Source: Marsupella aquatica (taxonomy: Eukaryota; Plantae; Marchantiophyta). Taken from it: a stretch of 64,000 nucleotides of DNA. How positions within the stretch are numbered: position 1 is the first letter of the stretch; the number at the start of each line of letters is the position of its first letter. Position numbers and translations under genes: made by a program. Under the pieces are notes generated by a model. It was not told the origin of the DNA, searched no databases, and was given only the letters and a program-made list of their open reading frames with translations. Positions 14,654 through 59,176 of this stretch are shown here, one piece after another. The stretch lies in the NCBI GenBank assembly GCA_973895155.1, contig OZ316893.1, positions 17,242,770 through 17,306,769 on the forward strand. Reading direction: 5' to 3'.

Positions 14654-14655
14654 AT

Positions 14656-16627: not shown

Positions 16628-16674
16628 TACCTACGCTTCCGTTCTAACTTCATATCTCACGGCTTAAGAAATGC

Positions 16675-16692: not shown

Positions 16693-16696
16693 AAAA

Positions 16697-23912: not shown

Positions 23913-24303
23913 TGTAAGTAGTGAGTAAATTACAAAAGTCAAAATAAGTGAAAAATTTGAAAAAATTTCAAAGTGTTAATAGTATACTAGTTTACTAGTT
24001 ACTAGTTAGGAGTATCCAAGAGTTAATAGCATTACAGGTTACAACTTTACCAGTTTACGAGTATACGACTACGAGTTTACGACTTCAACACTTGAACGAT
24101 AACATGCGAACGGACAATGCGATAGCGATGGGTTGCGGAGCTTCTAACGATTAACTCCCAATGGAGTGATGCATCCTGGAGTAAAGGATGAGGCGCAAGT
24201 GAACCCTGACCTCTACACGCATTTCCTCTACAATTTATCTTACACTTACAATTGAGCATAATTTCAACACTGAATCCCTAGGCGCAGACTACAAACTGAA
24301 GCT

Positions 24304-26690
24304 ATGGAAGGACTTGGAGTTGATGAACAATATTGTGTGGACTCTCTGACTGACACTCCCATGACTAGTGTTAACTCGTATTCCACATAATGAAGATAGC
24401 TATGCTAGCTTACAATCATCTCTACAGCATATGGGACTGTTATGACTACTGTATGTTCCCTGGAATATTGAGCTTGATTCTTACTTACAAGATTTTGTCA
24501 AAGGATCAACTATTTTCAGTGAGTTCCACCATTCCATTCAAGCTCGCCCAAGTCTCTGGACAATTGAGCAAGTTGCGTCTGCATTTCAGTGCTCGACAGA
24601 TGGCGAAGCTCTTTACTCCAAGAAGAAAGATTTATCTTCACCTTACTTCTCTGGAACTAGGAATCTTACAAACGGATGGAATTTATCTCAGTGTAGTTAT
24701 CCAGAGTTGAGAATTCTTTTAGAATTCTTAAACCCCATTTTCTATCCTAAGAAACCAACTCTCTGGTCTATAGCATTCACCAATACTGTGATAGCTTTGC
24801 ATAGTGGAGAAACAAAAGTCAACTGGGCCTTGCTGATAATCAATGTCATAAAAGGACAATTGAAAAGTCTGAAGGTAGGAAGACCCACTTGTTTGCAGAA
24901 TTATTTATCTCAGCTCTACTATGCCCATGACTGCTTACACCTTGAAGAGAGAACGGAGAGAGGGTTGCTCCTAATCGAACTAGGCATTGAAGAAGAGATT
25001 TTAATAGAAGAACCAAGATAGGTCATTCCACTGGATTCCAATGACCAAAATGTTGATGTGGACATTGATGTTAATATGGAGGATGTCTCATTAGGTGGTT
25101 CTGGACCTTCACTTGTACACAACTTGGAGGTCATCTGTCATCCAATGTATGACTTGCACTCTCCAAGGGAAACCAGTGGTGCAGATCAACTGGAAGCTGA
25201 AGGAGACAAGTTTTTCCCTGAGCAATAAGAAGTTGCTGAACCGACTATTGCTGCCATTCATGGGACCACCACGCCCACTTTTTTGAAAGTTGAGTCTAAT
25301 CAACAACTCATTGATAAATTAACCTCTCTTTTTGGTTGTAGTGATGCTGAACTCTATAATGTGGTTAGTGACTTGAGAATGGAGTCAGTTAGTCTGCAAT
25401 CACCTTTTCCAGATCAGTTGACTCCTATCAAAACAACTTCACTCATAGGAGGTTTGGAACCAGAAGAATTTATTGTTCTTACTCCTATCACACAACAGAA
25501 TCCCCCTATAGAACAGTGTGAACATGTCTCAGGGATAGGAAACATAAGTTGTGTTATAGTTGTAAACGACCTATTGGAAATGCTTCAATGTGAACCCAAG
25601 GAGATAGTCTATATTGTCAGTGACTTAATTCAGAAGTACCCAGTATCCAAGGGCCCTTACAATCAGGGTGCTTGCACTTATAGTCCAGATTCCAGTTATG
25701 AGCCAACAGATAGACCTATTTATACTCAACCACAGTATGAACATCTTTATGTTAGACAGGATCTCCCTAAAGACTCCGATCCACCCTTAGACGGTGAAAC
25801 TTATAGATCTTATGATAATTCTCTTGAGTCGTCACCAAGGCAAGGATTTGAAGATGTTGACGTTGCATTATGGTCGAATCCAAATCTAGTGGCAGTGGTT
25901 ACTTCTTCTACTCAAACTCCTAGAAATGCCACTATTGAGAGCAGGTACCCCAGACATCCTGAGTCACAAGGATGTCACCACTTGCAAAATAATGCAGGCC
26001 AACAGACCACCGGTTGGAGAATTCTGGAATTCTTTGACCTCAGGTGTCATAGTACTTCTAGAGTGGAGATGGCATAATTTGATGAATTTTGGACTGACTC
26101 TATCTACTTCCGGCCCATTCTTGCTGTGATGCTGCTACAAGGTGATGTGGAGGTGGAGGATCCTGATTTGGTCCTGGCATATTTTATAAACTTTGCAGCT
26201 CATGTTCTGGATTTTGTAATCTCTTTTCTTATGCAGAGTAAGAAATCCACTTCTCTTCAGAATGATTACATTCCTCAAAAGTCCAAGGTTGTACTCATTT
26301 TGACTAGTACCTTAGCTGACAAACAAAGGATATGGAATAATGTTACCTCTCAAACTCTTGTTGAATTCAACCAATACTTCAGGGATGTCATTTTGAGACT
26401 TCATCCTTTCTATTCTAGGATGATGAGAATTGAAGATTTCCTATTCCATTACCCTCAAGTATATGCTGCTACCTGCAATCACTATGATGTGATTGGGATC
26501 TACAGAGAAGCACTTCGTATAGACTTGTGTTAAGGAGAAGAATGTCTTTGATGTATCTGATAGGCAATTAAGATGCCTACCCTATTCTCGAGGATCATCA
26601 CAACAAAGTGAGCTTATGGAAATTACTCAATCTCGGACTATTACTCTCGTGGAGCTTCTCGAACCAGATGATATCCAACGACAAGCTTGA
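24304..26690 (+). pseudogene. Decayed accessory ORF inside solo LTR 1
   Basis: Fragments MEGLGVDEQYC, ILLEFLNPIFYPKKP..KVNWALL and KQRIWNNVTSQ are colinear with the ORF in unit 3 (MAGVDESSC, ILEFLVPIFHPTRP..EVNWGLL, KQRIWNNITSQ). Confidence 0.75.
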
Positions 26691-27942
26691 GGCAGAATCT
26701 GAGTGTTTTAGTTAGTTTTAAGAGTTGTGCATCTTTTCTGATTTTTTCTAAATGTGTTCTAGAGCTTTAAAAGCTATGAAACTTCTTCGGGAGGTAGTCT
26801 GTACCTAGGAAAACCTGCTGGCAAAATTTCAGAGTTTTCTATGCCAGGAGTAGAAAGTTAAAAATAGTTAAATTTGCTAAGTTCTTAAGTATATAGCAAT
26901 TATATGAGTTTACGAGTTACGAGTTAGTGACTTAGGACTATAAGACTTTACGGTTTTACGGGTTTACAAGTTCATACTTAGCCACTTTTCTGGATTTTCA
27001 CTTGCAGAATGGCCATTTTAACTTTTTGAGGGGTATGAAGCGGCATGTCTCTTCGACCCTGTGACCTCTCATTCTGTAGATTTTCACTATAAGACACCTC
27101 TACCACTAGTGTAGAGGAATGGTAAAGTTATGCATTTTTGCCTCTTCCTTGTGTTAAACCAATTGATCATGAATCTATGAGTTTGAGGTCAGGTTTAACA
27201 AATATGAGATACTTTTCTCCTTCTTGTGTTTGTACCTATGTTTATAAACACAGGAAGTAAAATTCATTTGTGCAAAATCTTTGGAGTTGTGATGATAGAT
27301 TCTTTTTAGGTGATTCATTGCAATCTCTTGAGTTCTTAGAATTAACTCATTGAGTTTAAGTCTTATTGAAATTGATGGATTTTCTTTCATGTTGCTTAGT
27401 AGCATCTAAATGTTGAAGTAGCTACCTTTTAGATCTTGTCTGAGTATCACTTAGAAAGAAAAGACAAGATGTGTTGACGGCACTTTAAAAGAGTACTCTA
27501 GTAAGCATTTTAGACCTGAAAAGCAATGTGAATTTGAATCTCATAAGTCTTTTCATTTTGACTAATGTTTAAGGAGTAACCTTGGTACATACCAGACTTC
27601 CTTAGCATAGTTTAAGACATTTTTCCATGTGTTTTGTTAATTATTTCCTTTTATTAATTTATGTTTACACAATGTTGAGTTATCATTGAAAACTACTCAC
27701 CGCTGTGGAGCGATCTTCAAAATACCTTAGTAAAGTAATCAAATTTGATTACTATGTGTGGGAAACATCTTAATTTCTTTATTATTGTTTAAAATTATCA
27801 AACCAACCCCATCTTGTTCTTTACGGGAACGAATACCGAGTTTGAAGACCTTTAAGTGTGTTTTTCCTTGAATGGATTTTTTATAAATTTCAATACTGTG
27901 AGAGCCCCACGGATAGGGAGGCCAAAGAAGCCATTAACAATC

Positions 27943-29712
27943 TGTAATACAGTACATTAGTTAGAAATGATAGAAAAATTATAAATTTTGAACTTTTTCT
28001 AAGTCAAAGGTGGAGTATAGCTACCTTTTGTAACCATTTAGATCGACTGGACACTTTACCTAATACCATGCTACACCGAAGACTACTTCCTGTTCTGGAT
28101 CTTGAACGACAGCGGAAGTCTTTACCTTTCTATCGGCATCACACTCAAGACATGGATAAAATTCAAGAAGCTATGCAAGAGAATACCTACACAAGAGTTC
28201 AGCAACCAGACTAGACAGCACTACTCCAACAAGATTAGTTCTCCTACGACAATAGTTAAGATCAGTCGATCTCTGCAATTTTAGTTAAATAGTTATCATA
28301 GTTAGAAAAGTCTCATACTTTTTCAGGAGATAGCCCTTACATAGTAGACCATACCCTAAAAATATAAGCCAAAACCGACATGTCGTTTAGGAGATATGGC
28401 ATTTTTAGTTTTACATAAGCGTGAGTGCGCAAAGGCGCTACTATGCCAAAGCGCAAAGGCGCAACAGTGCTTCTGACACTTGGAAAAGTTTCCGAAAAAA
28501 TGTATTTTTTTTATCCGACAACACTTTTCACCTATTTTATTAAGGCACTTAGACACCTCAGAAAAGTCTAAAATTTTGCCAACATGTAGCATGTATATAA
28601 ATCTTCCACCTAGGAAAGTTTTACCCTATTCTGACCTTTATGTTAGAAATTAAAATTAAGACAAAGTTGATATTTGTTAGTTTTACCACAAAAGTGCAAA
28701 AAACATTTTTACTCCAGTTTACACTAGGGATAACTTTTGGTTAGTTTTTCATTCCAACAACATTCTACTCAACCATGAGTACTCTTATAGCATATTTTCA
28801 TACTTTTTACTTTAGTCTATGACCCTTAAGATATGAAAGGGCATGTCCTTTCATTATCTCTTTTTCCTTTAGTTCCTGCCACCCTATATGTAGTAGAATT
28901 TATGCCACTTTATGTGTGAAGAAATTTCATGAGCGCTCAGTTGCAAGATTGCAACTTTGTTACCTCCATTTGTAACAAGCACTCCATTGCATATGAGTAC
29001 TTAATACAAAGGAATTCTTCCCCCTTCAAGTCTAAATGAATGAGAAGTTTGGACCCTTGAAGTAAAATTATTGTGATTGTTGAATTTTTTGAGTATGTGG
29101 AAATAGATTCCTTGTTGGTGATGTTTCACATATTCCTTAGTTCTTGATGCATAGTTTTTGGCGTGACATTGCTTGTGCACGGGATGCAAAGATTGTTACT
29201 TACCAATTACTTATGGCTTCAAATTTGATCATGATGGTGTCTCTTATTTGTGACACAAAGTATCGATTGGATACAGAAGTGATTGATTACTAGTCTCCAC
29301 TCAGTACCTTGGAAGGAAAAGTTGAGACATATTGACGGCATTTTAGTAATCATCCTAGTACCGTAATCCTTTCCATAAATGTTCTTGCGGATATACCACC
29401 TAAATCATATCAAATGAAGTTATGTTGAGGAGTCACCTTGGTTGTTTCCTAACTCCCTCACCATACCTCAAGGTTTTCATTGTGTTTTATTAATTGTTTC
29501 CATTTGTTAATTTTATTTTCAATGTCAAGCAGACATTTAAAACTATGCCTTGCTGAGCAACCATAGTAAAAGGCTCAACTTTGTGTTTTTGTTACCTTAT
29601 TCATTCATAAGTGCTAAATCATAGAAAATCATTCCTTACATGTTCTTCCATGGGAACGAATACCGAGTTTTGGATCTTAAATGTTTATTTATGTCCCTAG
29701 TGTGATACTACA
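27943..29712 (+). mobile_element. Solo-LTR-like unit 2 (1770 bp), internally deleted relative of unit 3
   Basis: TGTAATAC...GATACTACA, TSD CAATC (27938-27942 and 29713-29717); keeps only the last ~55 codons of the ORF (MLHRRLLPVLDLERQRKSLPFY). Confidence 0.85.
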
Positions 29713-29835
29713 CAATCAGTGAAAACACAAACAGAAACCCTACCAAAAGGGAAACAACAACAAAGAACATAACACAGACCCTAGCCGAGCCGGGGCCCAG
29801 CACCAATCCCCCCACAGCAAAGGCCAACAGGGGCC

Positions 29836-31290
29836 TCACTCAGCCCAAGAGATGAAACACCTTTGACCAGAACAAAGCCACTGTCTATGGTGCTCATCAA
29901 GCCACCCTTTGGCCTGTAAGATCCTAGCATGTTTCCTACCCTGCAGAAAATGCCGGCTCACCACAAACATATGATCAGCAGCCTCTGAGAGAACCAATCC
30001 AAAGTCAAATGTGCGTCTGCCCCCCGGCTGAAACATGTGCACATTGCGTGCCCTCCAAACCATCCACAGCATCTGGTACAACATAAAGATCTTCACTGTG
30101 TGAACAACATCCTTTCCCAATGAGTCATCCAACAGAGTCATCAGATCCTCACCTAGAGGCAAACAAAGACCCCCCAGCACCACCCGATAAAGCTGCCATC
30201 ATCTAATAGCAAACCCACATCTAATGAACAAGTGCGACAATGACTCCAGCAGCCCACTGCAACACTTACAATCCCCAGTGCTTGCTTTGATCCTGAGCGC
30301 CCGGCCGCTCACCAGTAAACAGACCACCAACAATCACCCTCCATATGAACGTCTTAGCGCAAACTGAAAGATCCGATCCCCACAGCCTGTGCCATCTCTG
30401 ACTCCATTCCAATGCAGACCACGCCCGAGACCAGCTGAAGTTCAATCTCTCAAAGACAAGCACCTTTGGTTGCAGGAAATTGTACACCCTACAATTAGCG
30501 ATGCTGAAATCCTTCAGGGGATCAGCCTTATCTGCCCATCTCCACCTCTTGGCCTCTGGTTCAAAGTCGAGTGAGCAAGATCCAATGCCCCAGATTTTCT
30601 CCAGAAAAGCCTTTGTCAATCCTCTAAGCACCTCAGAGAACCCCCGTAAGTTATTCCAACATAAAGGGAGGTCTTTCCAACAGTCTCCTTCCGAGCACCA
30701 ACCGTCCCTGATACTCCTGATGCCTAATCTGCCACAGATTGCCGTAATTCCTAATATCTCTGAATTCGGCAACGAATTATATCCTGCAATACACCGGAGG
30801 GTGTCTTGGATGCTCCAACAACCAAGAATTCCCCCTGCCCTGGTTCAAAGGAGAGGTGAGCCCTCACCATCTCCCAAGCCTTCCAAAGGCCAACAGTGTA
30901 CGAAAGCCCGCCCCCAGTGCGTGGGGAACACAACAGTAGCTTGTCCTTGAATGAGAATTGGTTTTTGCGCAGTACTTTGTAATTCATCCAACCCATTAAG
31001 GAGAGATTCGCTTCAAGCATTCTAGCCCACTCCTGATTTGGGGCATTCAGAGCCTTCGTGAACCACTATGAAAGCAAGGCATCTGAGTGGCTCTTGAAAT
31101 CTTTGAATCTCAGACCACCTTCCACCTTAGGCAGAGACATCTTGGCCCATGCAACGAGGGGGATTTTCTTCCCTCCCGAAGGATTATATCCCCACAGAAA
31201 GTCCCGGCTGAGGGCAACCAACTTCTTAGCCAAAGCAGCCAAAGCTTTGAAGTGCATAACATCATAAATGGGGATTGTCTGCAGCACATG
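29836..31290 (-). pseudogene. LINE ORF2 C-terminal part (post-RT region, zf-RVT)
   Basis: RDFLWG..VAWAKMSLPKVEGGL, WHRLWGSDLSVCAKTFIWRV, LWMVWRARN; several frameshifts. Confidence 0.85.
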
Positions 31291-32762
31291 TGTAGTATCA
31301 CACTAGGGACATAAATAAACATTTAAGATCCAAAACTCGGTATTCATTCCCATGGAAGAACATATAAGGAATGATTTTCTATGATTTAGCACTTTTGAAT
31401 GACTTAAGTAACAAAACACAAAGGTGAGCCTTTTACTATGGTTGCTCAGCAAGGCATAGTTTTGAATGTTTGCTTAACATTGTAAATAAAATAACACAAT
31501 GGAAACAATTAACAAAACACAATAAAATCTTGAGGTATGGTGAGGAAGTATGGAAAATACCAAGGTAACTTCTCAACATAACTTAATTTGAGATGATTTA
31601 AGGTATTGAACTTGTAAGAACATTTTTGGAATGGAATACTTTATTGGGATGGTTGTTAGGGTGCTGTCTACACATCTCAACCTTTCCTTCCAAGGTACTA
31701 AGTTAAGATTAACAACCAATCACTTCAGCATCCAATCGGTACTTTGTGTCACAAATATCAAGCACCATCATCAACAACTTAAAGTCACAGGTAATTGGGT
31801 GATAACATTCTTTGCACCTTGTGCACAAGCAATGTTATGCCAAAAATATATGCATCAAGAACTCAAGAATGTATAGCCTTCACCAATTAAGGAATCTATC
31901 TCCACACATTCAAAAGATTCATCAATCACAAAGTTTTACTTCTCTGGTCTGAAATCTCAATCATTCAAACACAAGGAAGGGGAAGAAATTATTTGTATTA
32001 AGTACTCATCAACAACATAGAGTGCTTGCTACAAATGGAGGTAACAAAGTTGTAGACTTGCAACTGAGCGCTCATGAAATTTCTTCACACAAGAAATGAC
32101 ATGAGAACTACTACTTATATGCTAGGAGGAACTAAAAGGAAAAGAGATAATGAAAGGACATGCCCTTTCTTATCTCAAGGGTCATGGATAAAAGTAAAGT
32201 AATAAAATTGTACTACATAAGTACCTAAGTTTCAGTGGAATCTTCCTGGAATGAAAAGCTAACTAAAAGATATTTCAGGTGTTAACTATTGTAAAAGTAG
32301 AATTATGGTAAAACTAATGAACATGGGTTTTGTCCAAATTTTAGTTTCTAAACTAAAAATCATAAAAAGGTGAGACTTTGCTGAAGTGTTCTCTGATGTA
32401 TATTCTTTATGCTGGCAAAATATGAGACTTTTTTGAGGTGCCTAAGTGCCTCAATAAAATAGGTAAAAGTGTTAAAAAGATTACAGAAAACAAAAACCGA
32501 AAAATTTTCTAAGTGCTGGGCGCATGCGCGTATAGGCTCATAGGCGCATAAGCCCATTAGCGCTTTCGCGTCTAAGCAAAAAACAACAAAACTAAAATAT
32601 TTTTTAACTTTCAAACCACAAGTCGGTTTGAGTTGAGATTTTCAGGGTAGGTTCTACTACGTAAGGGCTATCTCCTGGAAAAGTATGGGACTTTTTTGAC
32701 TACTTTAAGTATGTAACTAAAATTGCGTAGATCTATATAACTTAACTATGGTCGCAAGAGAG

Positions 32763-34208
32763 CTAATCTTGTTGGAGTAGTGCCGTCGGATCTGGTTGTT
32801 GAGCTCTGGTGTAGGTGTTGGTCTGCATAGCTTCTTGAATAGCATCCATATCTTGAGTGTGATGCCAATAGAAAGGTAGAGACTTCCGCTGTCGTTCAAG
32901 ATCAAGTACAGGAAGTAGCCTCCGATGTAGCATGGTATTTACCTTGCTAGCTTGCATGTAAATACCAATGAAGTCGTAAGTGCAGCAGGTAGCATGGTAG
33001 TTTTGAGGAAACTTGGCCATGAATATCTCAGAGTCTTTGGCAAGTGGTAGAAATGAAGTAACTCTAGGTAGGAGTTCACGCCACTTCAGAGTATACTCTG
33101 TTAATCGTTGAGAAGTAATGTTATTCCAGATCCTCTGCTTCTCAGTGACTGGAGTAACAAATTGTTGGAGGACAACGGGTTGGACTGGAGAAGCTTCATG
33201 ATTCATCTGAAATCTCCTCTTGGTTTGTCTTAAGAAGACAATGATGAACTCCATGACATAAGCAGGTAGATTCCCGAAATAAGCTAGAGCTAGATCTCCA
33301 TTCTCCAATACAAGGTGTCCAACGAGGATCATGACAGCAAGTACAGGGCAAAAAGACTCAGCTTCTGTCCAGATCTCATCCATTTGTGCTATCTCCAAGC
33401 GAGTGACCTCTAGCAGATGAAGTTTCAAGATATAAAGGCATTCAACTCTCTTCTTATGGTAATATTTCCAAAACTCCAAAATAGGAGGGGATCTAAGGTC
33501 TGAGACTCTAACAAACTCAGCAAACTGTTTAATACTTTCCTGAGGGGTTTTTGGATCAATATGCAGAGTAGGGATAAAATTGACTTGGCATGATTTGTCT
33601 TGATTGGGTGGAAGAGTGTCAGGGAAAGAAATGGCAAGATGTGCACCTGCAGGAGTGATCTCAAGTTCTGGAAAACTAGGGAAAAGTTGGTTTGGTTGGT
33701 TTGAAGGACTATAAGGAGAAGTAGGTGAATGGCTAGAAGGAGAACTAGAATAAGAAATGGGAGAGACTGATGCTGAGATATGATAGCGAACTGCAGAATA
33801 AACTTGCTTGGTGTTGCAGCCGAACATCTGAGTGAATCTGTGGACGAGATCTTCACAGTATTCCAAGTGCTGATCGTGGCTTGAAATACATGATAATCTA
33901 TACATAACCTCATCTAATACTTCGATCAAATGACCAGGATCACACTCCAACATCTTGCAAATCTCACCTACAAGATTAAAGTAGTACTCAGCTGAATGTC
34001 GGGGTGAAGTATTCACAATTTGTTGAAGATCTGTTCTCTGTGGTGGTAATCTCTCATCCATTGGGGATCCCATGATAGGTCGGGATTCTCAATGTCTGTC
34101 AGAGAAAGGTGATGTGTAGTCCTAGGGGCTTCTGATTGTCCTTCGGTGAATGGATGTTTTGATTGGATAGGACTCTGGGTGGGTGAATAAATGGAAGTGG
34201 GATTGTAT
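32763..34208 (-). pseudogene. Accessory ORF of solo LTR 3, C-terminal part (436 aa open)
   Basis: Homologous to fragments in units 1 and 2; its N-terminal part lies at 52441-53474 across the CACTA. Confidence 0.75.
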
Positions 34209-34229
34209 GGACACTAGAAGAATCCGAGG

Positions 34230-34570
34230 TGAACTGAGACCGCAATATGTGACTCATTTTGGCTCATGTGACTTCATTGTGACTCAACGTGACTTGACCC
34301 ACGCTGTGACCCTTGGAGTTGCAAAAGTTGAGACCAAAAAAGGGAAGTCACTATTGATACTGGGCTTTGCAACTTGCCTGATACCCATTTGTGACTGATC
34401 TGTGACTTTATTGTGGAGTCTAGCCTTGTTTCTACGTGACTGCAATATGACTTCAGCGAGTCACATCGAAAGTCACATACATGACTTACTCGCATTCAAC
34501 AACGACTACCTTGTGACCATTTAGTGTCACAGGAGAGACCAATGGAGACCCTGGCCCGCGTCACACAACA
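34230..34570. repeat. CACTA left subterminal repeats (GTGAC/GTCAC motifs, presumed TnpA sites)
   Basis: Many copies of gtgac/gtcac in both orientations next to the TIR. Confidence 0.7.
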
Positions 34571-35066
34571 GAACCATTTGGGACTCTATATACTCATGTT
34601 TATAACTAATAAGGTTCACATGCAAGTTATAACCATGACTAATGAACACAGAGGGACAGTTCATAAGGAGAGAGAGCACTCCACATTACAATACATAGAA
34701 ACCTGATGTTCTAACTTTAGAAATATAACACATTGAATACAAGAAATGAACATAGCATGAATGACATCCACATGAAATAAAATATCATATAAGCAGATCC
34801 TACATAAAACATTCATAAGAATTAAACACAATCACAATCTTGCTAAAAAATGAAGATCATTTGAATTCCAATGGAATAGTTTACAATGTGATCAATGTAA
34901 TTCAGACAAAACAGGAACTCATAATTGATGACTGCAGGATGAGATAACTGAAAGCACATGCATGATACTATGAATCTCCAAGAGGACATGATTCTTGTAC
35001 TGCTTTTTGACATCTAAAATCTACATAACATGACTCACACTACAAACAAATAATGACATGACATTG

Positions 35067-38850: not shown

Positions 38851-38928
38851 ATACATCTGTGTTGCTTCAGAATTACTTTATTACACATCCTTCCCCTCAC
38901 TAATGTCCATGCAAACAATTCACATTAC

Positions 38929-42501: not shown

Positions 42502-43173
42502 CCTACTGGCTCCTGAAAGTCTGGTTCGTAACCTTTCACGCTGCCAAGCTTATTATCATGGCGTGATATCCTTGTGGGATGATGCAAAGGCAGTGCCTAT
42601 GCCCTGGGCTGGGTTTGGGGAGGGTGGTGACTAGGGTGCATTGTAACAGGCTGGAAGCTCTGCAGTCATGGACAGCAGTGAACAGGGATGCCTAATGGTG
42701 GTATTTGTGTTCCATATATCCCTGACTGTATGTGCCAAAAGAGTTAACATAACGTGTAATAAATTCTCACAAACCCTAAACCACCCCAAAAGAAAAAAAC
42801 AGGTTTGCGAGTAGTGTACCTATTGTCAAGTGAATGACACAAAATTCCTCAATGTTTGAGGGTGTCACCACCTCCACAGCTATCCTCAAATGTACCGCCT
42901 CTGCATGTACACCCATGACCATATCAGAGTCCAATCATGTATAGTCATAGGCACAGGTGTGAGAGCGGTATCAGATATCTCACCGCCAAGATTTGAGCCC
43001 ACCCAGTACATTTACAGTGACACCCCCAGGCAGCAGGAAACAACAATCCGCCAACAGCAGAATAAGCCCAACTGCCACCAACCATAACAAGGTACATTAG
43101 TTCAAAGATCACATTTATTTCAATGATCTGATTTATACAAAAAAACTTGTGTCCAAACTGATGCTACTACTCC

Positions 43174-44052
43174 TCACTCTGATTCAGAATCACTAATGAC
43201 CCATTCCTCACTTGTTGTCTCATAGTCCTCTCTATAAGGATCCTGACCCTTCCGTGGCCAGGCCTCAAAAAGATCATAGTCCATTGGGTTTTGACGCTTC
43301 CCAGCTGCTACTGATTCCACAAGCCAAGCATATGAAACCACAAACACATTATGGGACATGACATAAAAGCGAATGTGTCCCTTCCCAAACTTGCGGCAGG
43401 CTTTGGGATATGACTTAGTAATGACATGAGTGGTGTCCTCTATTATATTCTCCTCCACTGTCCCACCTAGGTCAAGCACCGTGGACTTGTACACTTTGCA
43501 CTTAACCTCTCCAATTCCCGCCTCCACAAATACCATGCTCAGCCCTTTCAGAATGGGGGTTGGTTGCTTCTTCTCCTCAGCCAACATACTCTTCAGCCTT
43601 CTAGAGCTCTATCCTTTGTTGAGTTCAGGTCCATATTGGACATCAGCAAGCAGTGCCTTTGCTTCCCAGACTTCTTGTTCAGCCCAAGCTGATGCAGTAG
43701 CTTCTTCATCCTCCCACAACTCATATTGCTCAGTATCATGTACAATCTGATGTGCTATGGAATCTGTGATCCAAGAGGCCTCAACTACTTTTAGGCCTTG
43801 CTTAGTAATTGCAGAATTCATGTAGGACCATGACCACTTCTTTATCACTGATAGCCATGTCCCTGCAACAACATGTGTAGTCTCTGGAGTGATGTCCTGC
43901 ACTATAGTGCCATGGAGCTCAGATAATCGTTTCTGTACAGTTGGCCAATGCACTTTGGTCAACCCATGTTGGCCATGGACCAAAATGGCTCTGACCCCTG
44001 TAAACACTGCTGGGTGGTCACACTTTCTACGTTTCCCAGGCTCCATGTACAC
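43174..44052 (-). pseudogene. Tandem-BRCT protein (~290 codons) with a single in-frame TAG at 43609-43611
   Basis: Two repeats of G..v...i...TTHVV..(K/F)VV..(S/A)W..(D/E)S. The 147-aa and 137-aa ORFs are in frame, 7 sense codons apart. Confidence 0.8.
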
Positions 44053-44638
44053 ACACCCTACGTGATGACAATGAATTTTGGAAGAATGGGTTCACCTGAC
44101 AATACAAGGACAACAAAATTCCTGTGTTTTGAGTTGATCTGGCCCATTGGTGCTCAGGTCCGATTTTGATAGGTACAAGGGATATGTGAACAATACGTAC
44201 TAGGCACCTGCACGGATGCAGGACATTGTTTGAATATATACTACAAAATCCATATCGAAGGTGAAATGAAGTGCAACCAACTTGTCATGGCACATACATA
44301 TTTTGTTGTAAAGGAGGATACGTTCAATGACAAACTTATAGGGCAATTTGATTAATTGCATGCCTGATAATTTATACGCTTACAACTTAGAAGTCCTGTT
44401 TTAATTTAGCAGTCTGATGAAAGTGTTTATGAAAATGACCACTCAGCCTAAATACTTCCAAGAAGGCTTGTAAGGATAAGTTTTTATAGGCATGTACCCA
44501 GCCACTGACGCCAGAGCACAAGATAAGTGCTGCCTATATAAACTCGCCTACCCAACTCCTTTTCAAAATTGGAATCTCTGCAATCTCAAAAAATAGTATA
44601 TCCACATCAGGTGCACTGTGCATGTACAATGTTCAGCT

Positions 44639-45319
44639 TCACAACCAAGATATGTGATCTCTCATAGGAGTGCGCGAGGTAGGATCAATGGCATGGCGAT
44701 GACAATAAAATATCCATTGATCAACACCATGTGCAGAGTGATCATAGATTTCTCTATCACAAGCATAACCCTCTGCTTGACGATCTTTCAGGCAATGATA
44801 GTGCCACATGGTGGGACACCTAGCATAGTGGACTATGTCAGTCCAGTACTCATGATCATGCTCACCACATGCCTTGCACCTATGAAGTGGGCAAGCTGTG
44901 GCATGAGCAGGCAAACACTCAAAACAGAAAAATCTCACACAAAAACGGTCTGGACATTTCCTAACATTTGCTGCAGCATCAACACAGCCCTCATAGGACC
45001 CCAACTTCCCACACTGTGCACACTTAGCCTGCTTCTCCAAACAATCAGTGCACATCCAGTCTCCTTGGTGTGTTGACGGGAGGCCCACCCCTGGACAGTT
45101 GTTTTCTGCAGCAAGGTCAGACTCCGGGTTGAGGTGGAAATGCCTCATGCAAGGGCCCTCACAAATGACCAGGCCCCCACCATCGTCACAAATGGCACAA
45201 CAATGAGCTGCCTTCTGGAAAATCTGACTTGCAGAGAAGTTAGTAGCATCTGCCCCAAGTACACCTGTGTTTCTCACCTCTGTCACAGGCTTTTTGGCTT
45301 GAATTTTAGGTCGTGCCAT
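44639..45319 (-). CDS. Stand-alone EDM2-like PHD-finger protein (226 aa, no intron in the ORF)
   Basis: CAICDDGGGLVICEGPCMRHFH..C..C..CGKLGS..CPLHRCKACG..RCPTMWHYHCL..IFYCHRHAID..TPMRDHI follows the EDM2 PHD block as I recall it (CAICDNGG..CEGSCLRSFH..CPLHKC..YCQEHEID..TPVRDHV). Confidence 0.85.
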   Translation of the reverse strand: MARPKIQAKKPVTEVRNTGVLGADATNFSASQIFQKAAHCCAICDDGGGLVICEGPCMRHFHLNPESDLAAENNCPGVGLPSTHQGDWMCTDCLEKQAKCAQCGKLGSYEGCVDAAANVRKCPDRFCVRFFCFECLPAHATACPLHRCKACGEHDHEYWTDIVHYARCPTMWHYHCLKDRQAEGYACDREIYDHSAHGVDQWIFYCHRHAIDPTSRTPMRDHISWL

Positions 45320-45330
45320 GCCTGCGCATG

Positions 45331-45474
45331 AGATAGACTCTACAATTTAGCAGAATGCACAGAAAGTAATATATATTTAGCATTTAAGGTACAAAGGCAT
45401 TTAGATAGACTCTACAATTTAGTAGACTGCACAGAAAGTAAAATATATTTAGCATTTAAGGTACAAAGGCATTT
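45331..45474. repeat. 72-bp tandem duplication just upstream of the PHD ORF
   Basis: agatagactctacaatttag...gtacaaaggcattt, twice. Confidence 0.9.
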
Positions 45475-46089
45475 GCTACTGCAATGAATTGGAATGGCCA
45501 CACAAGGATGCAGAGCAGACATACTTTTGGTATGTTGAGCCCACACACAAACCTGATCCCCTAATACAATTGCTCCACCAACACCTTAATTTTAATTGTG
45601 GCTATGATTCACCAAAGGAGATCTGCAACAACATTTCATGCATTTGAATCACATACAATAGTCGTGACATGTAAAATAGGCATTCTTCGAAGAGGATTGG
45701 TATGAAGCAGTGTCATAAGGGTTGAAATTTATACATCCTAAATAGGCTATGATAGTGGCTGAGACAAATAAGTGATGCATAAATCACATTTTACAGGTTA
45801 TCACATGGCCCATTAATTCATTGAACGTTGCAATGTTCACCAGGTTAAAGCAGTCATGAAAGCAGTCTTTCAATAGAGACTTTTATGCGAGTTTGCTAGC
45901 CTCTTAAATTAGGATATTTTGCTTAGTGCAGGCATAATAGGATAAGTTATGTATTGTTGACCCTAAACCCTGGACCCAAAATTGCTCATACATCAAAATT
46001 TTAAGTAAATATCCTCTGTGTTGAAGTCAGAGTGTTAAGCTATAGGTCAATGGTATCTGGTCTGTGCATGCGGTGTGACAAGTGGTCCT

Positions 46090-46554
46090 CTAGAGCATGT
46101 GATCCAAACATGTGTAGACACCAAAGTCACCGGTGGTGGGGTCTGGGAGGGCAGGACAAGTGACATCACCAGGCACACTGCAGGATGGCGAGTGGTTCCA
46201 GATGATACATTGTGCTCTGTGCAAAAATCGGCATCCAAGAGAATGGTCATCCAATTCTGGGCCAGAAGCCCTACAGGCAGGACAGTCATATTGGCAACTG
46301 TGTACACACCCTCGACACCTAATTTGTGGCGGGTCATGTACAAGAGACACAAATATCAAGGATGTCGGGAAGGGTACTGAAGCAGGTACAGGCCGACTGT
46401 AGTTGTTCCTGGAAACAACAGGGTACTCAAAGTATCATGCAGATTGGGCTGGAAGGATCCCAAGTCTGACATACTCAAGGTGCAACATCTCTGCCTTGCG
46501 TGCAAGTCGCACATGTTCAGCGTTGCGGGTCCTCACCATAAGTGTTGCTTTCAT
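46090..46554 (-). pseudogene. Possible small Cys/His-rich ORF with one internal TGA
   Basis: MKATLMVR..QSA*YFEYP..CRGCVHSCQYDCPACR..HSLGC in one frame; family not recognised. Confidence 0.35.
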
Positions 46555-47549
46555 TGTGATGTCCTCTGTTCACGTCCTTTGATGAGCAAGGTGAGCAGGA
46601 GGTCGACTTGCCTCGCCAACAGCAACCAACCTAAACTAATCAGTTCCCACTCATTGTCTTGGTTCCAACTACAGGTCATAGTATACACATAGCATGAAAC
46701 GTGCATAGTACATATTTGATTCTGAGTTTATGAGTTTCCTAAGACAAAGAGCTTGGTGATAAACCCATGTTCTCGACGGACATGTATATCAATCATATTA
46801 AAATCCTGTTTTTTCATCCAGAAAGACCGAAAGTCTCACCTTACAGGTTGCAGCAGAGAGAAAATTCACTGGTTGTCGTGTTGTGCAAGTGAACCTCCAC
46901 TGATGCCCCCGGTGTAGCCCCTCAGATGCAGGTGACACTTACCAACTCCCAAGTTGCCTGGTCTAACAGAAAATGCTTATATCTTCAGAACTTTATAGAG
47001 CAAGTACATGATCACATACTTCTGGATCTATTCATATTTGGAACTCTTGCCAACTACAACTCCCATTATGCACAAGCTCACATCAACAGAGAAAGATACA
47101 GAATGCATACTTACTATGGCTCTAAGCACCTTCACTACCTTGTTGAACCCAGTCCTGAAGTCTTTTCAGCATGTTTGTTGTGCTGTCTCCTTTGGCACCC
47201 AACACCTTAGTCCTTGATGTAACAGAATGCAATTTTACAAGTTAGATGCTTTGGAACCTTCTATGGTCTTAGCTGAATTGATGTCATCGTAAGTGGTGAA
47301 AGACAAGGAAGACGAAAGTTGGTTGAAGAGCTGTGGACAACACACTAGCATGAAGTGCTTCAACCAATCCACTGCCAAACGGAACTCTTACACAGTCACA
47401 TTCTTTCAGTAAACAGAAACTCAGTCAAACTTCATAATCAAAGTACAGACTCTGAAGGACCAAAAGAGGATGTTGTGAGTTTCTCTGTTGTTTAATGTGT
47501 TACCCTTCTAGTTTCGAAGTTAGCAAATGCTGAATAATGTGTCTACCAG

Positions 47550-47891
47550 ATCTTCGAAAAGAAGCCCACCACAATTAAGAACTTCGGTATCTGGGTGAGG
47601 TATCAGAGTCGTACAGGTTATCCCAACATGTACAAGAAATATCGTGATACCACATTGAACATCGCTGTAGAGCAGATGTATGATGAGATGGCTTCTTGTT
47701 ATAGAGTTCGGTTCCCTTGCATCCAGATCATCAAGACTATGACAGTCCCTGTCTCTCTGTGCAAGCGAAAAAGTACCAAGCAGTTCCATGATTCAAATAT
47801 CAAGTTCCCCTTGACGTACCGCAAGATTCAACCTCCATCGCGAAAGCTAAAGACAACTTACAAGGCCACCAAGCCCAACACATTTGTTTGA
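47550..47891 (+). pseudogene. RPL18A: Captured terminal exon of 60S ribosomal protein L18a (eL20)
   Basis: [53 protein letters not shown], directly after an intron acceptor (ctaccag); no upstream exons seen. Confidence 0.9.
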
Positions 47892-49716
47892 GTAGTGCGG
47901 GTGCAGGTTCCCAATTTTGAAACAATTTGGCTCATTTTATGTCCCGAGGGACTCCAGGAGTTTATGTATTGAGTTTCTAGTTCAAGATGCTTAATATAAG
48001 GAAATTCAATTATCACTTCGTTCCCAACTTCTATTAATTGAATATACACAAGCTGGAAGCAAGAAGACAAGCCACAATCTAGCATCTTAGCCAAACACAA
48101 TCGTCCTGACAAAGCAAAACTCAGCTGGACAGAAGTCACTCGGATCCACAAAAAATTGAAGATTCACCTCCAAGCCGGAGGCCGATCACTTCAGTACAGC
48201 AGCTTCTGGACGGAACAAACTCTGCTCAGCCCCACAGAAACACAAATGTTAAGGCTCCAAGTCAGAGCTCACAAACAGAAACTCAGATAAATAACATTCA
48301 AAATCTGTCCAGGTTTGTGCAAAGTGTACATATTCATTCTTTTGGAATGAACACGCAATGCATACATCGCCTAGACACAGTCATTATAAATCATTGGGCA
48401 ATTGGGGACCACTAAGCAGGTGTGTTCCTATTTCGAGGCTACAGGAAAGGATAGAGTGACACCAAACTGAAGAGTACACCAAAAGAAAAACAGCAAGAAC
48501 CAAAGTCAATCATGTGTGGATAAACTGCACATGGGAAGTTCCCCTAAAGAAGCATCAGTTGCTAACATTGTCACCCGAACCACACCCAGTTTATTACCTC
48601 AATGTCTTCAGCCTCAATATCCAATCCTCAGCCCCCTGGTGCTTCCGTGTTTGTTCTGCAAATTTCTGTGATGAAATAATTATTCAATACATTCAATAGC
48701 AAAGAGAACTCAATCACAAAAGAAAAATAGTTAGTGTGAATGCTAATTTCTCAACACTTAACTAAATTCAAACCACCAATTCAAGTAGTAAGTTTCAAAA
48801 ACTTGCCTTTACATGAAGAGAAACCAATTGGCCATGCATGTTACTAAAGCAATAAACAAATAATTAGGCTCAACCCCGGGCTCAACACACAGGCAAACTA
48901 CTCAAAACATGTTGCTGAGAAGTAGCATTTTTTGAATGTCAGACTATGTGTAAGTGCCATGATCGTGCTCCTACGTTTCACAAGGAGGGCTGGCCCGAAA
49001 GGGAGAAGCAACAATGTGGAGTCTATACACGTAGCACAAATCCCAGTTTAGAAGGGTGGATGAAGTTCAAACAAGAGTTCAGAACTTGCCATTTGAGATT
49101 GCCAATCTGAACTTCACATTTAGACAGGACTTCATCCAGTTCAGGAGTTCAGATAGGAGTTCAGACAATCTGAAGAGGACTTTGGACTTGAATGAGGGAC
49201 AGCGTGGCCATATAGTTATCCTTGTGGCCTTCAGCTGCGTGTCTCAGGCTGAATTTCACTTTCCAGTTTCGAGAGTTCTGAAGGTCTAGTTTTAGTAACT
49301 TCCTCCTGACTCGACTTGGGAGCATTCTCCCTATTTGCTAGCTTGTAGTTAGCTTTGACTCCTGTGAGCTTAGTTGACGACCCTCTTGAGATATTAACAA
49401 TTAGAACAAACACAAGTTGTCAAGACAGATTCCACCGGAGCAAAAAGTCCAAAATCAGGTGAAAGAAAACCTAAGGAAAGTCCATAAGAACGAAAGTAGG
49501 AAGGCAGGTGCACGGGCCACCGAGAAAAGTAAAGGATGCATGTGATTAGTGGGGAGGGATCTTAGCAAAAACAGGGGAAAGCAAGGGAACTTGCTGCTAA
49601 AATCAGTTGAACGATTGCACGGTTCCTATAAATTTAGTGGACCTTAAGGCCGTCTGTTCACCCCCCCACCCCATCGCCAGAGCACGGGGCACAAGGCATG
49701 TTCTGATACAGGGAGG

Positions 49717-51490
49717 ATTGAGCAGGCGATTGTAATAGCAGGCACCAGGCGATTGAAGGAAGCAGCATTCGGCAATGGACCTAGGCAGCTCGTGAATTTT
49801 GCTCAGCAGCGATGTCACCTAGACCCTAAACACGCAATGCATACATCACCTAGACAACTTGATCATTTGGATTCAGCTGACAGAGGTGGACATCAGATCA
49901 GGGTCCACGAGATCAGGGTCAGCGCCTCTTTACCCCCTAGCGGGTAGACTCAGAAGACAATCAAGTTTGGAAGGATGATCGACCTGTTACACAAAACCCA
50001 CCAGATTGCAATTCCAACCTAGCTGAGACTCTAGTGCTCGGGACAATGTATAGTTTGGATGGGAATATAACATTTTGCAAAGAGATTGGACAACAACATC
50101 AAAAATCCATAGGGCAATACAATAGTGGATGCTAGAGCTATCTAGGTAGACAAAATCGCGGGGAAGAATGATTTCTCCAAGTGACTTCAACTACCTTCAA
50201 TGCGTGGTGTCAGTTCCCGCCTGTAGACTCCCTCCTCCGAAGTTGCAAGAGCCAGCAATCAAACACACTGAAACAAAGTGGGTGGCAATTTCAGTATGAA
50301 ATCGAGTATTTGTGCTACTGCAATGAACAGAGTAAGGCAATGTAGTGGTCATCGTAGCGCCTCCTGAGAAGAACATTCATACACAGTGTCCATATCAAAC
50401 TCATGAAGTGGCAGAAAGGATAGTGTCGCCACAAGCGCAAACTCCCGACAGGTTTAAGCTGCAAAAAACTAACCCCTCCAAATGTCTCCAGCTTGCGACC
50501 ACCTCCAATCGACTGTAGCTATGACCGCAGGTCCTCCCCAGCCGCAACTCTGGCAAGTCCTTCCCAACTAGAGGTCATTGATCATAGCAGCTACAACACA
50601 CATCCAACAGCCTTCCGTCACCAAGCAATCGTAGCACCACTTGAAAGAAAAACATGTTTGCGCGCAGCAGCCTCAATCCTCCACATCTCTGACCCAACCC
50701 GACAACCCTAAACAACAAGACCGGAAAAGAGTATTCTCGCAAGCAGAGTGTTCGGCACTTGGTTTCTCTGCAACTCTCTAGCTCCCCATCTCAGTCCTCC
50801 GCCACACTTGCGACGAACAACATATTGAGCAGCTCGCGATTGCAGCAATAGTAGTTTGAGCAGCAGTTGATTGAACTCCAGGCGAATGAGCTCAGGGAGA
50901 AATGAGCTCCAGGCGATTAGGTGCGCGATTGAGCAGGCGATTGTAATAGTAGGCAACAGGCGATTGAAGGAAGCAGCATTCGGCAATGAACCTAGGCAGC
51001 TCGCGAATTGAGCTCAACAGCAATGTCACCTAGACCGTAAACTCTTCGCAGCAATGGAGTTCCAGTTCGGCAACAATGCAGCGCAACAATGCTAGCTACA
51101 ATAGGTTGGGCACTTACAAAGAAAGTCGCGATTGGCTCGGGGATCGGCTCCTTTGTCCTGGTCACTCACCTGGCCTAAACACTTAACTCCAGGTGAATGA
51201 GCTCCAAGCAATTGGGTGCGCGATTGATTTGGCAATTGTAATAGCAGGCAACAGGCGATTGAAGGAAGCAACATTTGGCAATGGACCTAGGCAGCAGGCG
51301 ATTGTAACAGTAGGCAACAGGCAATTGAAGTAAGCAGCATTCGGCAATGAACGTAGGCAGCTCGCAAATTGAGCTCAGCAGATTTCGCCCATCACCTTTC
51401 TCTTCATAGCAATGGAGCTCAAGAGTGCAAGCGATGTGACCTACACCCTAAACTCTTCGCAACAAAATGGAGCTCGGCAGCGCAACATTG
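49717..51490. repeat. Dispersed ~70-110-bp imperfect repeat, about 4 copies
   Basis: caggcgattgtaatagcaggcaacaggcgattgaaggaagcagcattcggcaatggacctaggcagctcg at ~49720, ~50935, ~51230 and ~51295. Confidence 0.85.
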
Positions 51491-52219
51491 GCGGGAAGGA
51501 AAATTGAGCAACACACATCGGGGTTGGGCAATGCTCAGCCAGGCTCCCCTCACCCTAAGTCGCGACGAGAAGGGCCGACTGTTGTTGTTGGGGGCCTAAA
51601 CCGGTTCCGCCTTGTATTTTGCCCCCGAGTACTCCCTGTATTTTGCCCCCAACTTCACAAAAGTCTATGATTTGCCTAAGCCCCATTTTCCTTTGTGAGA
51701 ACCAAAGGACTTAGGCTGACGTTATATGTGGGGTGAGTGGTTATGAAAAAACTTTGAACCACCCCCTTTGGTGAAAAACGGGGCCAAATGGTTAGGTATC
51801 AGTAAACATGACCATTATGAAAAGTATAATTTTTTAGGGTAAGGTATTCAAGACCTGATCATATTGTGAATATGTGTCACATTTAGGTTGGACTTATTGA
51901 TTTTGACAAGCATGCATTGCTTGTAAAAAATATAAAGACAAAGCATTGCATGGACGTACTTATTGAATAAAAGTAGGTGTTAAAATAAGGTCTTGACAAA
52001 CTGAAAAACCATGCGTTATCGTGCAAATCTTGTTTATTTTTTGTCGTGGAAAGGTAGTGATAAGATAATAATTAGTGGCTGCAAATCTGAGTTAAGCAAG
52101 TTTAGAGGAGGTAAGAAAATTAGGATTATCCCAAATGGTATGAGTTGGGTGGGGTCAAATGGCGTTAGATTGTGGAGTTAAACCCTAAAGCTGCACTACA
52201 TATATTCCGCTCTATTGTA

Positions 52220-52425
52220 CACGGAGTCACTTATATAAGTTCATTCTTGTTGGCTTAACTTAGTTAAAGTTATAACTTCCCCAATAGTTATAAAAATGAC
52301 TTCCCCAGGAATACTCCTGAACTAAGCCCACAACTTGTAACTAAAGTGACTCCAACAATCTAGGAGTCATAAATTCTAACCGGTCTCATTGGAGTCACTA
52401 GCGGCAGGGTCTCAAAATGGGTCAG
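52220..52425. repeat. CACTA right subterminal repeats
   Basis: Repeated ggagtcac/gtgactcc/tgactt motifs and ggtctca, matching the left end. Confidence 0.6.
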
Positions 52426-52440
52426 TTTCTTCTAGTGGGA

Positions 52441-53474
52441 GTAATACAGTTATAGGCTGGCGAGGGTTGAGTAACAGAAGCAGTCCTTAATCTATCTACA
52501 ATAGGGAGGATTTCTTCTGGATCACAAGTCAGCATTCTGGACAAACTATCTACTATATCCTGATTAAAAACAGCCTTCCCATCATCAATCAATTTCTCTG
52601 GATGATTATGTTCACTGGCAGGGATAATAGGGAGAGGAGTGTGGTCGGTTGGACTACTATTAGTATGGCAAGGTGTAATCTCAACGTTAGGATTAATATC
52701 CTCATCCATAAGTTCCGGAGTGGGTGGCATGATTTCTTGGTGACTGGCTTCTGATGTTTCCTCCATTCTCAGATCATCGAGTCTTGAATCAGCCTCCGAA
52801 TGTTCCACATCTAATTCCTCCAATAGTGCAATCCTTTTGAGCTTCTCCTGTGGGAGTAGACAGTCTCCATACCAGTAAAGCTGACTGAGGTAAGCTGGGA
52901 GGTATGTAGGCTTTTAATTCTGTACAACATTGATTTGACTGAGGATAGTGTGTCTCAGTAACAATCCCCAATTAACTTCAGCAAGTCCTTTCCATGAAGT
53001 AACAAACGTGTTTGCCAAAGATACAGGTACCATATATGGTCGAGTGGGATGAAAAATTGGTACCAGAAACTCAAGGATGATCTGGAAGGTATAATCAATA
53101 CATTGATTAAGCTTCCATCCAGCTTTTGTATTTCTCGTCCCAGCAAACATTGGATCAGATAAAGTACTCTTTCTAGATTGTAAACCACAGCCTTCTGATG
53201 AACAACTAAAAGCGTCGGCCACGAACTCTAAGTCCTACTTCTCAGGATCTGCTCGAACAGTCTCCTAAAATGCTTCTGGAATTTGTGACCCATCAGCGAA
53301 CTCGCGCAAGTAGGTAGGGCACACAGAAGACCACGGAATGGATAGAAGTTTTCCTAGGTGCATGACTTCTAGAGCATTGGTCAATAACATCAAATCCCTC
53401 TCCAGTGCGGGGTACTTCATTGGTACAGCTCTAGGAACAGGGAAGTCGCAACTACTCTCATCCACGCCCGCCAT
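52441..53474 (-). pseudogene. Accessory ORF of solo LTR 3, N-terminal part (plant-mobile-domain-like)
   Basis: MAGVDESSC..LLSIPW..YLREF..VADAF..FAGTRNTKAGW..C..ILEFLVPIFHP; stops and frameshifts. Confidence 0.75.
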
Positions 53475-54001
53475 GGCAAGTTGTAGCTACGGTTCTTGAA
53501 GTTGAGTCACTATTGCTACAGAAATCTAAGTCGCAAAACATTGGGGCGTATTGGCGTGATCGCGCATGAGCGTATAAATGTCACAGCGCTCAAGCGTCTC
53601 TTCGTATGGGCGTGAACGTCGAGGCCTTTGGTAGCAAACAGGGAAGTGAAAATGTTCGTCGCGAGCAGGTGGTCCAGTAAGTCACTCTGTCACTCCCTCC
53701 TCATCGTCAACGGTTACTTTCAGTTACCGGCAGGGTGGGCTGTGTATAAGCGTCTGGGCGCATCAGCGCATAAGCCTCTATGTGTCTGAGCGCATTAGCG
53801 GATTAGCTGCTACTGTGACTCCGATTTGACATGGCTGTAAAATGAACTAGTTTTAGGAGACTACAGGGATGTACTTGAGGATGGCTTAACTACTCTAATG
53901 CTCCTAATTAATATAGATAACCTGAGTTGAATCACTACTTATCTTAAAAAGTTGAAAAGTTTTAAATTTTCACAGAAATTCCGAATAACTGCTATATCTC
54001 A

Positions 54002-59093: not shown

Positions 59094-59176
59094 TGCCCGT
59101 GCTCGTAATGAGTAATCCTAACCACGCACTGCCCGTGCTCGTAATGAGTAATCCTAACCACGCACTGCCCGTGCTC
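59094..59176. repeat. 36-bp tandem repeat (2.3 copies) in the LINE 5' region
   Basis: tgcccgtgctcgtaatgagtaatcctaaccacgcac twice plus a partial copy. Confidence 0.9.

Follow-up and report, generated by a model that had tools for sequence, protein, structure and literature searches.

The 64,000-nucleotide (nt) window analyzed here, positions 17,242,770 to 17,306,769 of contig OZ316893.1 (assembly GCA_973895155.1) of Marsupella aquatica, is a nest of transposons, and three of its insertions, which we call units 1, 2 and 3, are likely solo long terminal repeats (LTRs) that hold an accessory gene or its remains. The unit genes are very probably homologous to an open reading frame (ORF) that lies inside the LTRs of a full-length Ty3/gypsy element in the same window. 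Overall, we somewhat favor the reading that the units are solo LTRs of two Ty3/gypsy families whose accessory gene, homologous to the gypsy ORF, encodes a VANC-like, motif-binding anti-silencing product.

The three units have the ends of solo LTRs

All three units start with TG, end with CA and are flanked by perfect 5-bp target site duplications (TSDs; GGATG, CAATC and ACATG for units 1, 2 and 3, respectively). These features had been described in the original prediction, a reading of the DNA letters alone, and its sizes of 3.97, 1.77 and 4.48 kb agree with the 3974, 1770 and 4482 nt determined here. The units were also said to lack gag/pol and terminal direct repeats, and this held: no gag/pol or transposase was matched when seven unit peptides were scanned against Pfam, and terminal direct repeats were not found in any of the three.

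Unit 1 is inserted in a Copia reverse transcriptase (RT) frame that breaks at 23912 and resumes after 59866, and it is interrupted by a long interspersed nuclear element (LINE). A TSD scan found no contiguous 3' end of unit 1 near 27880; the true end was found beyond the LINE, so that the length is 3953+21 nt with GGATG on both sides. In public contigs (four runs from two studies), the unit 1 tail follows 27865 in all four runs. Because this tail lies at 59841-59861, the finding reaches 59861; the stretch 23913..54001 originally assigned to it holds units 2 and 3 and most of unit 1, but not the unit 1 end. The LINE has a 15-bp TSD (27851-27865 and 59826-59840) and Pfam matches to RVT_1, Exo_endo_phos and DUF4283, and LINE copies without unit 2 are present in the public contigs. 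Unit 3 spans 22711 nt, of which 18229 nt belong to a CACTA transposon (34213-52438) plus one copy of its GGA duplication, leaving 4482 nt.

The units are dispersed, multicopy insertions with sharp ends; 44 contigs from the four runs leave the unit 2 end at 29712 into unrelated flanks (flank agreement, 0.41-0.52). With no more than 8-9 of their 20 terminal bases complementary, the unit ends agree with solo LTRs but not with CACTA elements, which have CACTA..TAGTG terminal inverted repeats (TIRs) and a 3-bp TSD. Pairing of LTRs around a primer binding site (PBS), gag-pol and a polypurine tract (PPT) was seen only for a protein-level relative, the locus L002 described below, and there with one LTR only.

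The unit genes fall into two families and were under selection

The ORFs of units 1 and 3 are colinear with an intact relative of 808 amino acids (aa), P0001, whose cluster has three 808-aa members. Two colinear proteins of roughly 800 codons had been predicted; the colinearity and the size stood (~795 and ~827 codons), but neither ORF is intact. In unit 1, four stops (within 24377-26530) and two frameshifts were found, and the unit 3 ORF, which runs from 53474 to 32763 minus the CACTA insertion with its N-terminal domain at 53432-52788, has three stops in the 5' part and is further disrupted by a net frameshift and by the CACTA insertion itself. A single second family of LTRs had also been proposed. 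Sequence comparison points instead to two families, one with unit 1 and the other with units 3 and 2: the DNA of units 1 and 3 is ~60% identical in two patches only, while units 2 and 3 share 78.6% identity over about 1650-1675 nt, up to the unit 3 end. Unit 2 is an internally deleted relative of unit 3, in which ~120 nt of the 5' end and the last 63 codons are left.

The unit 1 and unit 3 proteins are 41% identical in both conserved domains, with silent sites saturated; identity at the three codon positions is 0.51/0.60/0.29 in one domain and 0.52/0.69/0.30 in the other. The ratio of nonsynonymous to synonymous substitution rates (dN/dS) is 0.14 between units 2 and 3 over 63 codons, 0.22 between the metagenomic relatives L002 and L004 and 0.17 between L002 and L003. 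These values show that the ancestral unit gene was under purifying selection. Apart from the N-terminal domain, a second, C-terminal domain without a name (26078-26530; residues 561-790 of P0001) is common to unit 1, unit 3, P0001 and the distant protein P0114 (E 3e-8), and it was not found in other stored relatives outside the P0001 cluster. The original prediction also had solo LTRs spreading self-contained genes that would be annotated as hypothetical proteins of the host; both window copies are broken, and only one of the 19 members of that cluster that were read carries a name, "hypothetical protein."

Remote kinship with the ORF in the gypsy LTRs

The two LTRs of the window gypsy element (16697-21365, 4669 nt, and 5513-10157, 4645 nt) are 99.0% identical, with TG..CA ends and a purine tract present, and each holds an ORF of ~1200 codons with one internal stop. 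The absence of evident DNA similarity to the units, noted at the outset, was borne out by blastn, which gave no match between a gypsy LTR and any unit (word 7, E<=0.01), and unit peptides compared pairwise with the gypsy ORF by BLASTP gave no significant match (E 0.4-0.55). At E<=0.001, a search of the 50% library gave 221 relatives of the unit 1 N-terminal domain, and 106 of the 150 matches listed made up the N-domain profile. Run on the six-frame translation of the window, this profile hit four places: unit 1 (201 bits), unit 3 (199 bits) and, with 9.1 bits each, both gypsy LTR ORFs. The gypsy match falls on the very stretch whose parallel with the unit 3 N terminus had been picked out by eye.

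Several further comparisons support the match. The isolated gypsy domain scored 18.4 bits, a value that none of 2000 shuffles reached (maximum, 16.3), and it also outscored all 2000 shuffles with either of two profiles that have no row in common (12 and 94 rows). Alignment of the unit profile with the gypsy domain by hhalign, the kind of check suggested at the outset, gave a weak positive result (P 87%, E 4.1e-6, 106 columns), and in a ranking of 168 window peptides the three unit peptides came first, followed by the two gypsy ORFs (E 7e-5), with the next at E 0.12. The match covers ~100 of 220 profile positions, about half of the domain, and the unit C-terminal domain is absent from the gypsy ORF. 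We judge the kinship of the unit proteins with the gypsy LTR ORF to be distant but probably genuine.

As to the gypsy element itself, all 21 substitutions between its LTRs are transitions, and the two ORF copies differ by 10 nonsynonymous changes and 1 synonymous change and have each their own stop, as expected from decay after insertion.

Relatives reside in gypsy LTRs and in CACTA elements

A metagenome scan with the unit domain gave 11 loci (L001-L011), among which L001 and L002 are one element (98%), L006-L008 are one insertion, and L009 and L011 have no boundary. Over 805 aa, the RT-RNase H-integrase region of L002 shares 54% identity with the pol of the window gypsy. After its pol stop follow a short motif and a purine tract, as before the 3' LTR of the window gypsy, and then TG at 2526; an ORF with 274 bits on the unit profile starts 570 nt past this TG. 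L004 shows the same TG start followed by the ORF, with a flank that has no purine tract. A clear unit-family protein thus sits in the 3' LTR of a gypsy element of a related lineage in another genome.

L005, L006-L008 and L010 have the domain ~820 nt in from a CACTA end, which occurs with three different flanks, and the gene converges on a DUF4216-like transposase remnant. Judged from these loci, the gene has moved between element classes; the same has been reported for PMD (PMC5418596). The original prediction had gene-in-LTR architecture as an old, lineage-wide trait. L002 and L004 support its occurrence beyond this genome, but the closest relatives with known context are found in CACTA elements. 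L003 may represent an LTR within a CACTA end or else a copy carried by a CACTA element.

Five proteins, none of them named, came from a further profile search; 36 pattern matches in viral contigs yielded no confirmed case, and Rfam gave no match. Some features of these loci stand apart. L005, L006-L008 and L010 (from 9110) represent a CACTA family with TCGCAA subterminal repeats (13 vs 0.6). L003 (7-600) opens with a CACTA-like end; an ATCCGG cluster with TATA comes next, ahead of the ORF, and both recur beyond it. In L011, an 807-codon ORF without a Pfam match (5222-7642, minus strand) lies upstream of a domain fragment. No weight was given to an 11-mer that the 3' end of unit 1 has in common with L002.

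Family-specific CG motifs in the gene-carrying elements

In units 1 and 3, CpG survives chiefly in the leader and just past the ORF, that is, in the motif clusters (Table 1). Three contig joints (24007>26910, 24006>26906 and 24068>26902) fuse both unit 1 clusters, with the ORF missing. The motif differs by family: ATGCGC in the noncoding part of unit 3 (7 vs 0.3), CCGGA in L002 and L003, and TCGGC/AGCCG in the window gypsy, at 6-17 per 2 kb, compared with mostly 0-2 elsewhere and 7 and 4 in two other bins. When synonymous codons were shuffled, the excess persisted in the gypsy pol (21 vs 8.1), in the L002 pol (39 vs 14.8) and in the L002 ORF, and it was borderline in the gypsy LTR ORF and the L003 ORF; none of four control sets (two Copia sets, CACTA transposase and LINE) showed it. 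L003 has a TATA box both before and after its ORF. Element age and host transcription factor sites are alternative causes of the motif pattern. The CACTA element within unit 3 contains, at 49716-51465, degenerate repeats of 66-116 nt that are rich in TCGGC, the motif of the window gypsy.

A possible VANC-like fold of the N-terminal domain

An alignment-based model of the unit 1 N-terminal domain reached a predicted local distance difference test (pLDDT) score of 93.9. Among the 50 structural matches listed, DNA-bound VANC21 (9lnk_A) was the only one that aligned most of the domain (Z 4.0, root mean square deviation 5.1, 176 residues, 10% identity), the next longest covering 94 residues; a second structural look gave EF-hand rows only. 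A sequence search of PDB with the gypsy domain gave no match, and window peptides had no Pfam match at the gathering score to PMD (PF10536), DUF1985 (PF09331), ATHILA (PF03078) or Transposase_32 (PF20167). PMD-C is reported to resemble the DUF1985 of VANC (10.1101/2024.09.27.615353; PMC13547354), and in Ogre/Tat elements the extra ORF usually encodes PMD (PMC6317226, PMC4408406). Short motifs that have accumulated in the cognate element are the binding sites of VANC proteins (PMC5735166). From the model, we consider a VANC/PMD-like fold of the unit N-terminal domain moderately probable.

Many relatives carry a coiled coil, and basic clusters occur in 7 of the 11 proteins listed. None of the 40 stored relatives of at least 400 aa reaches a Kyte-Doolittle value of 1.9, as a membrane segment would, and the transmembrane segment that marks env-like proteins is thus missing from these 40 relatives; one decayed window of unit 3 reaches 1.99.

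A possible history and its alternatives

We propose that the units were left by LTR-LTR recombination in two Ty3/gypsy families with an LTR-borne accessory gene. The ORF would sit in the U3 region of the LTR, between a CpG-rich leader, which may be the gene's own promoter, and a second CpG-rich cluster with TATA, which may be the LTR promoter for genomic RNA. Reverse transcription would copy the ORF to both ends of the element, and recombination would then keep it in every solo LTR. The product is weakly predicted to be a nuclear protein similar to PMD/DUF1985(VANC); it likely recognizes a short motif specific to its family, and such binding would keep the element promoters free of silencing. 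Derivatives without the ORF (unit 2 and the contig joints) still contain the motif clusters and would draw on the protein in trans. The fold match, the pattern of motifs and CpG and the lack of membrane segments in the 40 long relatives are compatible with such a factor. Taken by itself, the anti-silencing role is a tentative proposal that could well prove wrong. A wider version appears doubtful to us: an old VANC/PMD-fold anti-silencing family would have resided in the U3 regions of gypsy LTRs in seed-free plants and later in CACTA elements, its family-specific CG motifs co-evolving with it and solo LTRs acting as trans-activators.

A number of observations weigh against this history. For the link to the gypsy ORF, two homolog searches (587 and 412 candidates) gave no relative of the gypsy domain, so the link rests on one sequence set against a profile, and the single-sequence model of that domain was unusable (pLDDT 31.8). 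Both unit ORFs of the window are broken. No paired unit copy was seen in the public contigs, and no PBS or PPT consensus was found among the contig loose ends listed, including those after 29712; the absent PBS is a weak argument, because collapsed contigs would show a PBS as one or few records. The closest relatives with known context lie in CACTA elements, and in a quick tree (105 rows of at least 150 aa, the gypsy ORF being excluded as too distant) units 1 and 3 group with the CACTA-borne copies (support 99), apart from L002/L004. As regards the motifs, TTTACG in unit 1 (6 vs 0.6) only ties the shuffle maximum (z 6.0), the unit 1 and unit 3 ORFs show no enrichment in synonymous-codon shuffles, and the motif-enriched elements may be younger than the controls. 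The fold match, at Z 4.0, is within the range that the tool gives for chance helical matches, with an EF-hand row at 4.5; Foldseek found no match at E<=0.001 in PDB and BFVD, and a sequence-profile search of PDB returned coiled-coil noise, VANC21 being absent among the 60 matches listed. Among 92 members (25 of 39 families listed), none matched PMD or DUF1985 in Pfam, and two matched Transposase_32 (best E 0.005). P0001 and the C-terminal part of unit 3 have no basic cluster.

Three other explanations were weighed. The units may be solo LTRs whose conserved gene serves replication, assembly, integration targeting or an env-like role, with the CG motifs being host transcription factor sites. 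We regard this as unlikely, but the weak VANC21 match would suit it, and so would the coiled coils, since Athila-domain proteins likewise have them and are predicted pentamers (PMC13547354) and since extra ORFs of plants have been suggested to act as env-like proteins or chaperones (PMC7264820). However, long relatives with a membrane-spanning segment were not seen (0 of 40), the domain also occurs in CACTA elements, which have no particle stage, and the motifs are family specific and run through pol at silent positions.

Still less probable is that the units are not LTRs at all and that a promiscuous accessory gene travels in them, either as a one-gene mobile unit mobilized in trans or in fragments of a DNA transposon family. 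The contexts of the nearest relatives speak for it, as these begin at a CACTA end in three flanks with the DUF4216-like remnant (L005, L006-L008 and L010) and L003 too starts with a CACTA-like end; the missing PBS consensus after 29712 in the contigs points the same way. Yet TG..CA ends with a 5-bp TSD and no TIR are unlike CACTA, whose copy in this window shows a 3-bp TSD, the seven peptides scanned against Pfam gave no transposase, and the gene family does occur in a gypsy LTR (L002). Least probable of all is a chance likeness between units and gypsy ORF, with gene-in-LTR having arisen twice and the units possibly being Copia LTRs: the nonsignificant BLASTP, the ~100 of 220 aligned positions at 9.1 bits in the six-frame scan and the C-terminal domain missing from the gypsy ORF would fit it, but the gypsy ORFs rank right behind the units (E 7e-5 vs 0.12 for the next peptide), two disjoint profiles each beat 2000 shuffles, and L002 combines a unit-family ORF with a pol that has 54% identity to that of the window gypsy.

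Comparison with known systems

Extra ORFs within the internal part of gypsy elements from plants are already known. Non-chromovirus Ty3/gypsy elements are described with a PMD-coiled coil protein in Ogre/Tat (PF10536), Transposase_28 in Retand (PF04195) and Athila ORF-1 (PF03078) (PMC6317226, PMC4408406, PMC7264820), and Tat-like elements of mosses are said to have no extra ORF (PMC4408406). The window gypsy and L002 resemble Ogre/Tat, Retand and Athila in having a sense accessory ORF 3' of pol in a gypsy element without a chromodomain, and the proteins studied here resemble theirs in a globular N-terminal domain followed by an acidic spacer and often a coiled coil; LTRs of up to about 5 kb are already known. 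Differences are that no curated Pfam match was obtained here and that the ORF in those groups is internal (either 5' of gag or, past pol, ahead of the 3' LTR), as far as these sources show, whereas in the window gypsy and L002 it is inside the LTR.

VANC of VANDAL (MuDR) elements, with DUF1985 (PMC5735166; PDB 9LNK), is likewise a transposon-encoded accessory protein that evolves fast outside its core, and its cognate elements are enriched in a short family-specific motif, as several of the elements here seem to be. The fold match covers the whole domain but is weak (10% identity, Z 4.0). In contrast to VANC, the host here is likely an LTR retrotransposon or a CACTA element, not MuDR, and the motifs are CG-containing 5-6-mers that also occur within coding DNA.

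The sag gene in the U3 region of MMTV-type betaretroviruses offers a parallel for a protein gene that lies inside the LTR, is kept by solo LTRs and makes LTRs alignable over long times; 490 of 527 contigs with sag had no other retroviral genes (PMC4667437). It is an animal retrovirus superantigen of unrelated sequence, whereas the ORFs here are of ~2.4-3.6 kb and belong to plant retrotransposons. Rice Retrosat2/RIRE3/RIRE8 share LTRs of >3 kb, many solo LTRs and an extra ORF without known function (ORF0), which differs in lying upstream of gag-pol and is described as separate from the LTR (PMC3485330). At the level of titles and abstract openings, we found no report of a gene inside plant LTRs.

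LTRs of plants are regarded as noncoding, and the function of retrotransposon extra ORFs is called an open question in two reports (PMC7264820, PMC6317226). To this the window adds the L002/L004 context, the CACTA-borne sister copies, the derivatives without the ORF and the pattern of motifs and CpG, with one domain common to retrotransposons and CACTA elements. If the proposed history is true, solo-LTR formation, usually viewed as element removal, would leave behind an accessory gene together with its target motifs. Should the wider, doubtful version hold as well, solo LTRs dispersed in the genome would each drive their own trans-activator gene, so that methylation is kept off full-length and ORF-less copies alike, and this would be the first sequence-specific anti-silencing system of a plant retrotransposon. 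The family-specific motifs offer a direct test by binding and methylation, and the conserved protein makes such LTRs alignable across distant families.

Other features of the window

The features are collected in Table 1. The window gypsy, used as the comparison element, has a pol with protease, RT, RNase H and integrase without a chromodomain, an arrangement that L002 shares as regards RT, RNase H and integrase, and the same Pfam scan gave no match for an extra RNase H in the window gypsy pol. The PBS of the window gypsy may be tRNA-Asn-like.

Table 1. Coordinates of the units, their genes and motif clusters, and the surrounding elements
Feature	Position	Strand	Remarks
Unit 1, main part	23913..27865	+	Starts TG; left TSD GGATG at 23908-23912; inside Copia RT frame
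Unit 1, last 21 nt	59841..59861	+	Ends CA, then TSD GGATG; displaced by LINE
Unit 1 accessory ORF	24304..26690	+	~795 codons, broken; N-terminal domain ~24368-24973, C-terminal domain ~26078-26530
TTTACG/TACGAG cluster of unit 1	24054..24085	+	In CpG-rich leader
Second unit 1 cluster, TTTACG/TTACGA	26905..26960	+	Past ORF, ahead of TATA-like CTATAAG ~27087
Unit 2	27943..29712	+	1770 nt; TG..CA; TSD CAATC/CAATC
Unit 2 TGCGC cluster	28426-28459	+	TATA ~28594
Unit 3, whole span	31291-54001	-	TG..CA; TSD ACATG/ACATG
Unit 3, 5' part	52442..54001	-	TG at 54001; TGCGC cluster in CpG-rich leader; ORF from 53474
Unit 3, 3' part	31291..34212	-	Remaining ORF (stop 32763); TGCGC cluster 32520-32544; CA end 31291
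CACTA transposon	34213..52438	-	Inside unit 3 ORF; CACTAG..CTAGTG; TSD GGA
LINE	27866..59825	-	Splits unit 1 21 nt before its end; hosts units 2 and 3
Full-length Ty3/gypsy	5513..21365	-	Comparison element; TSD CTTTT; PBS starting TGGCG; gag-pol 16630-10146
ORF in gypsy 5' LTR	17939..21304	-	1121 codons stop to stop; domain 20362-20054 matches unit profile

At the start of the window, positions 3-53 are a second copy of the LINE 3' tail (88% to 27870-27918), directly before the first Copia gag; this segment had been considered as a unit 1 LTR end ahead of the Copia and was rejected, as it matches the LINE tail. The CACTA element carries, upstream of its transposase, two ORFs with BRCT domains and one with an NSD-like PHD finger (43174-45346, minus strand), which may be chromatin-reader cargo. 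It also contains an intron-free fragment of a ribosomal protein L18a gene (47538-47891, plus strand) that is likely a processed pseudogene.

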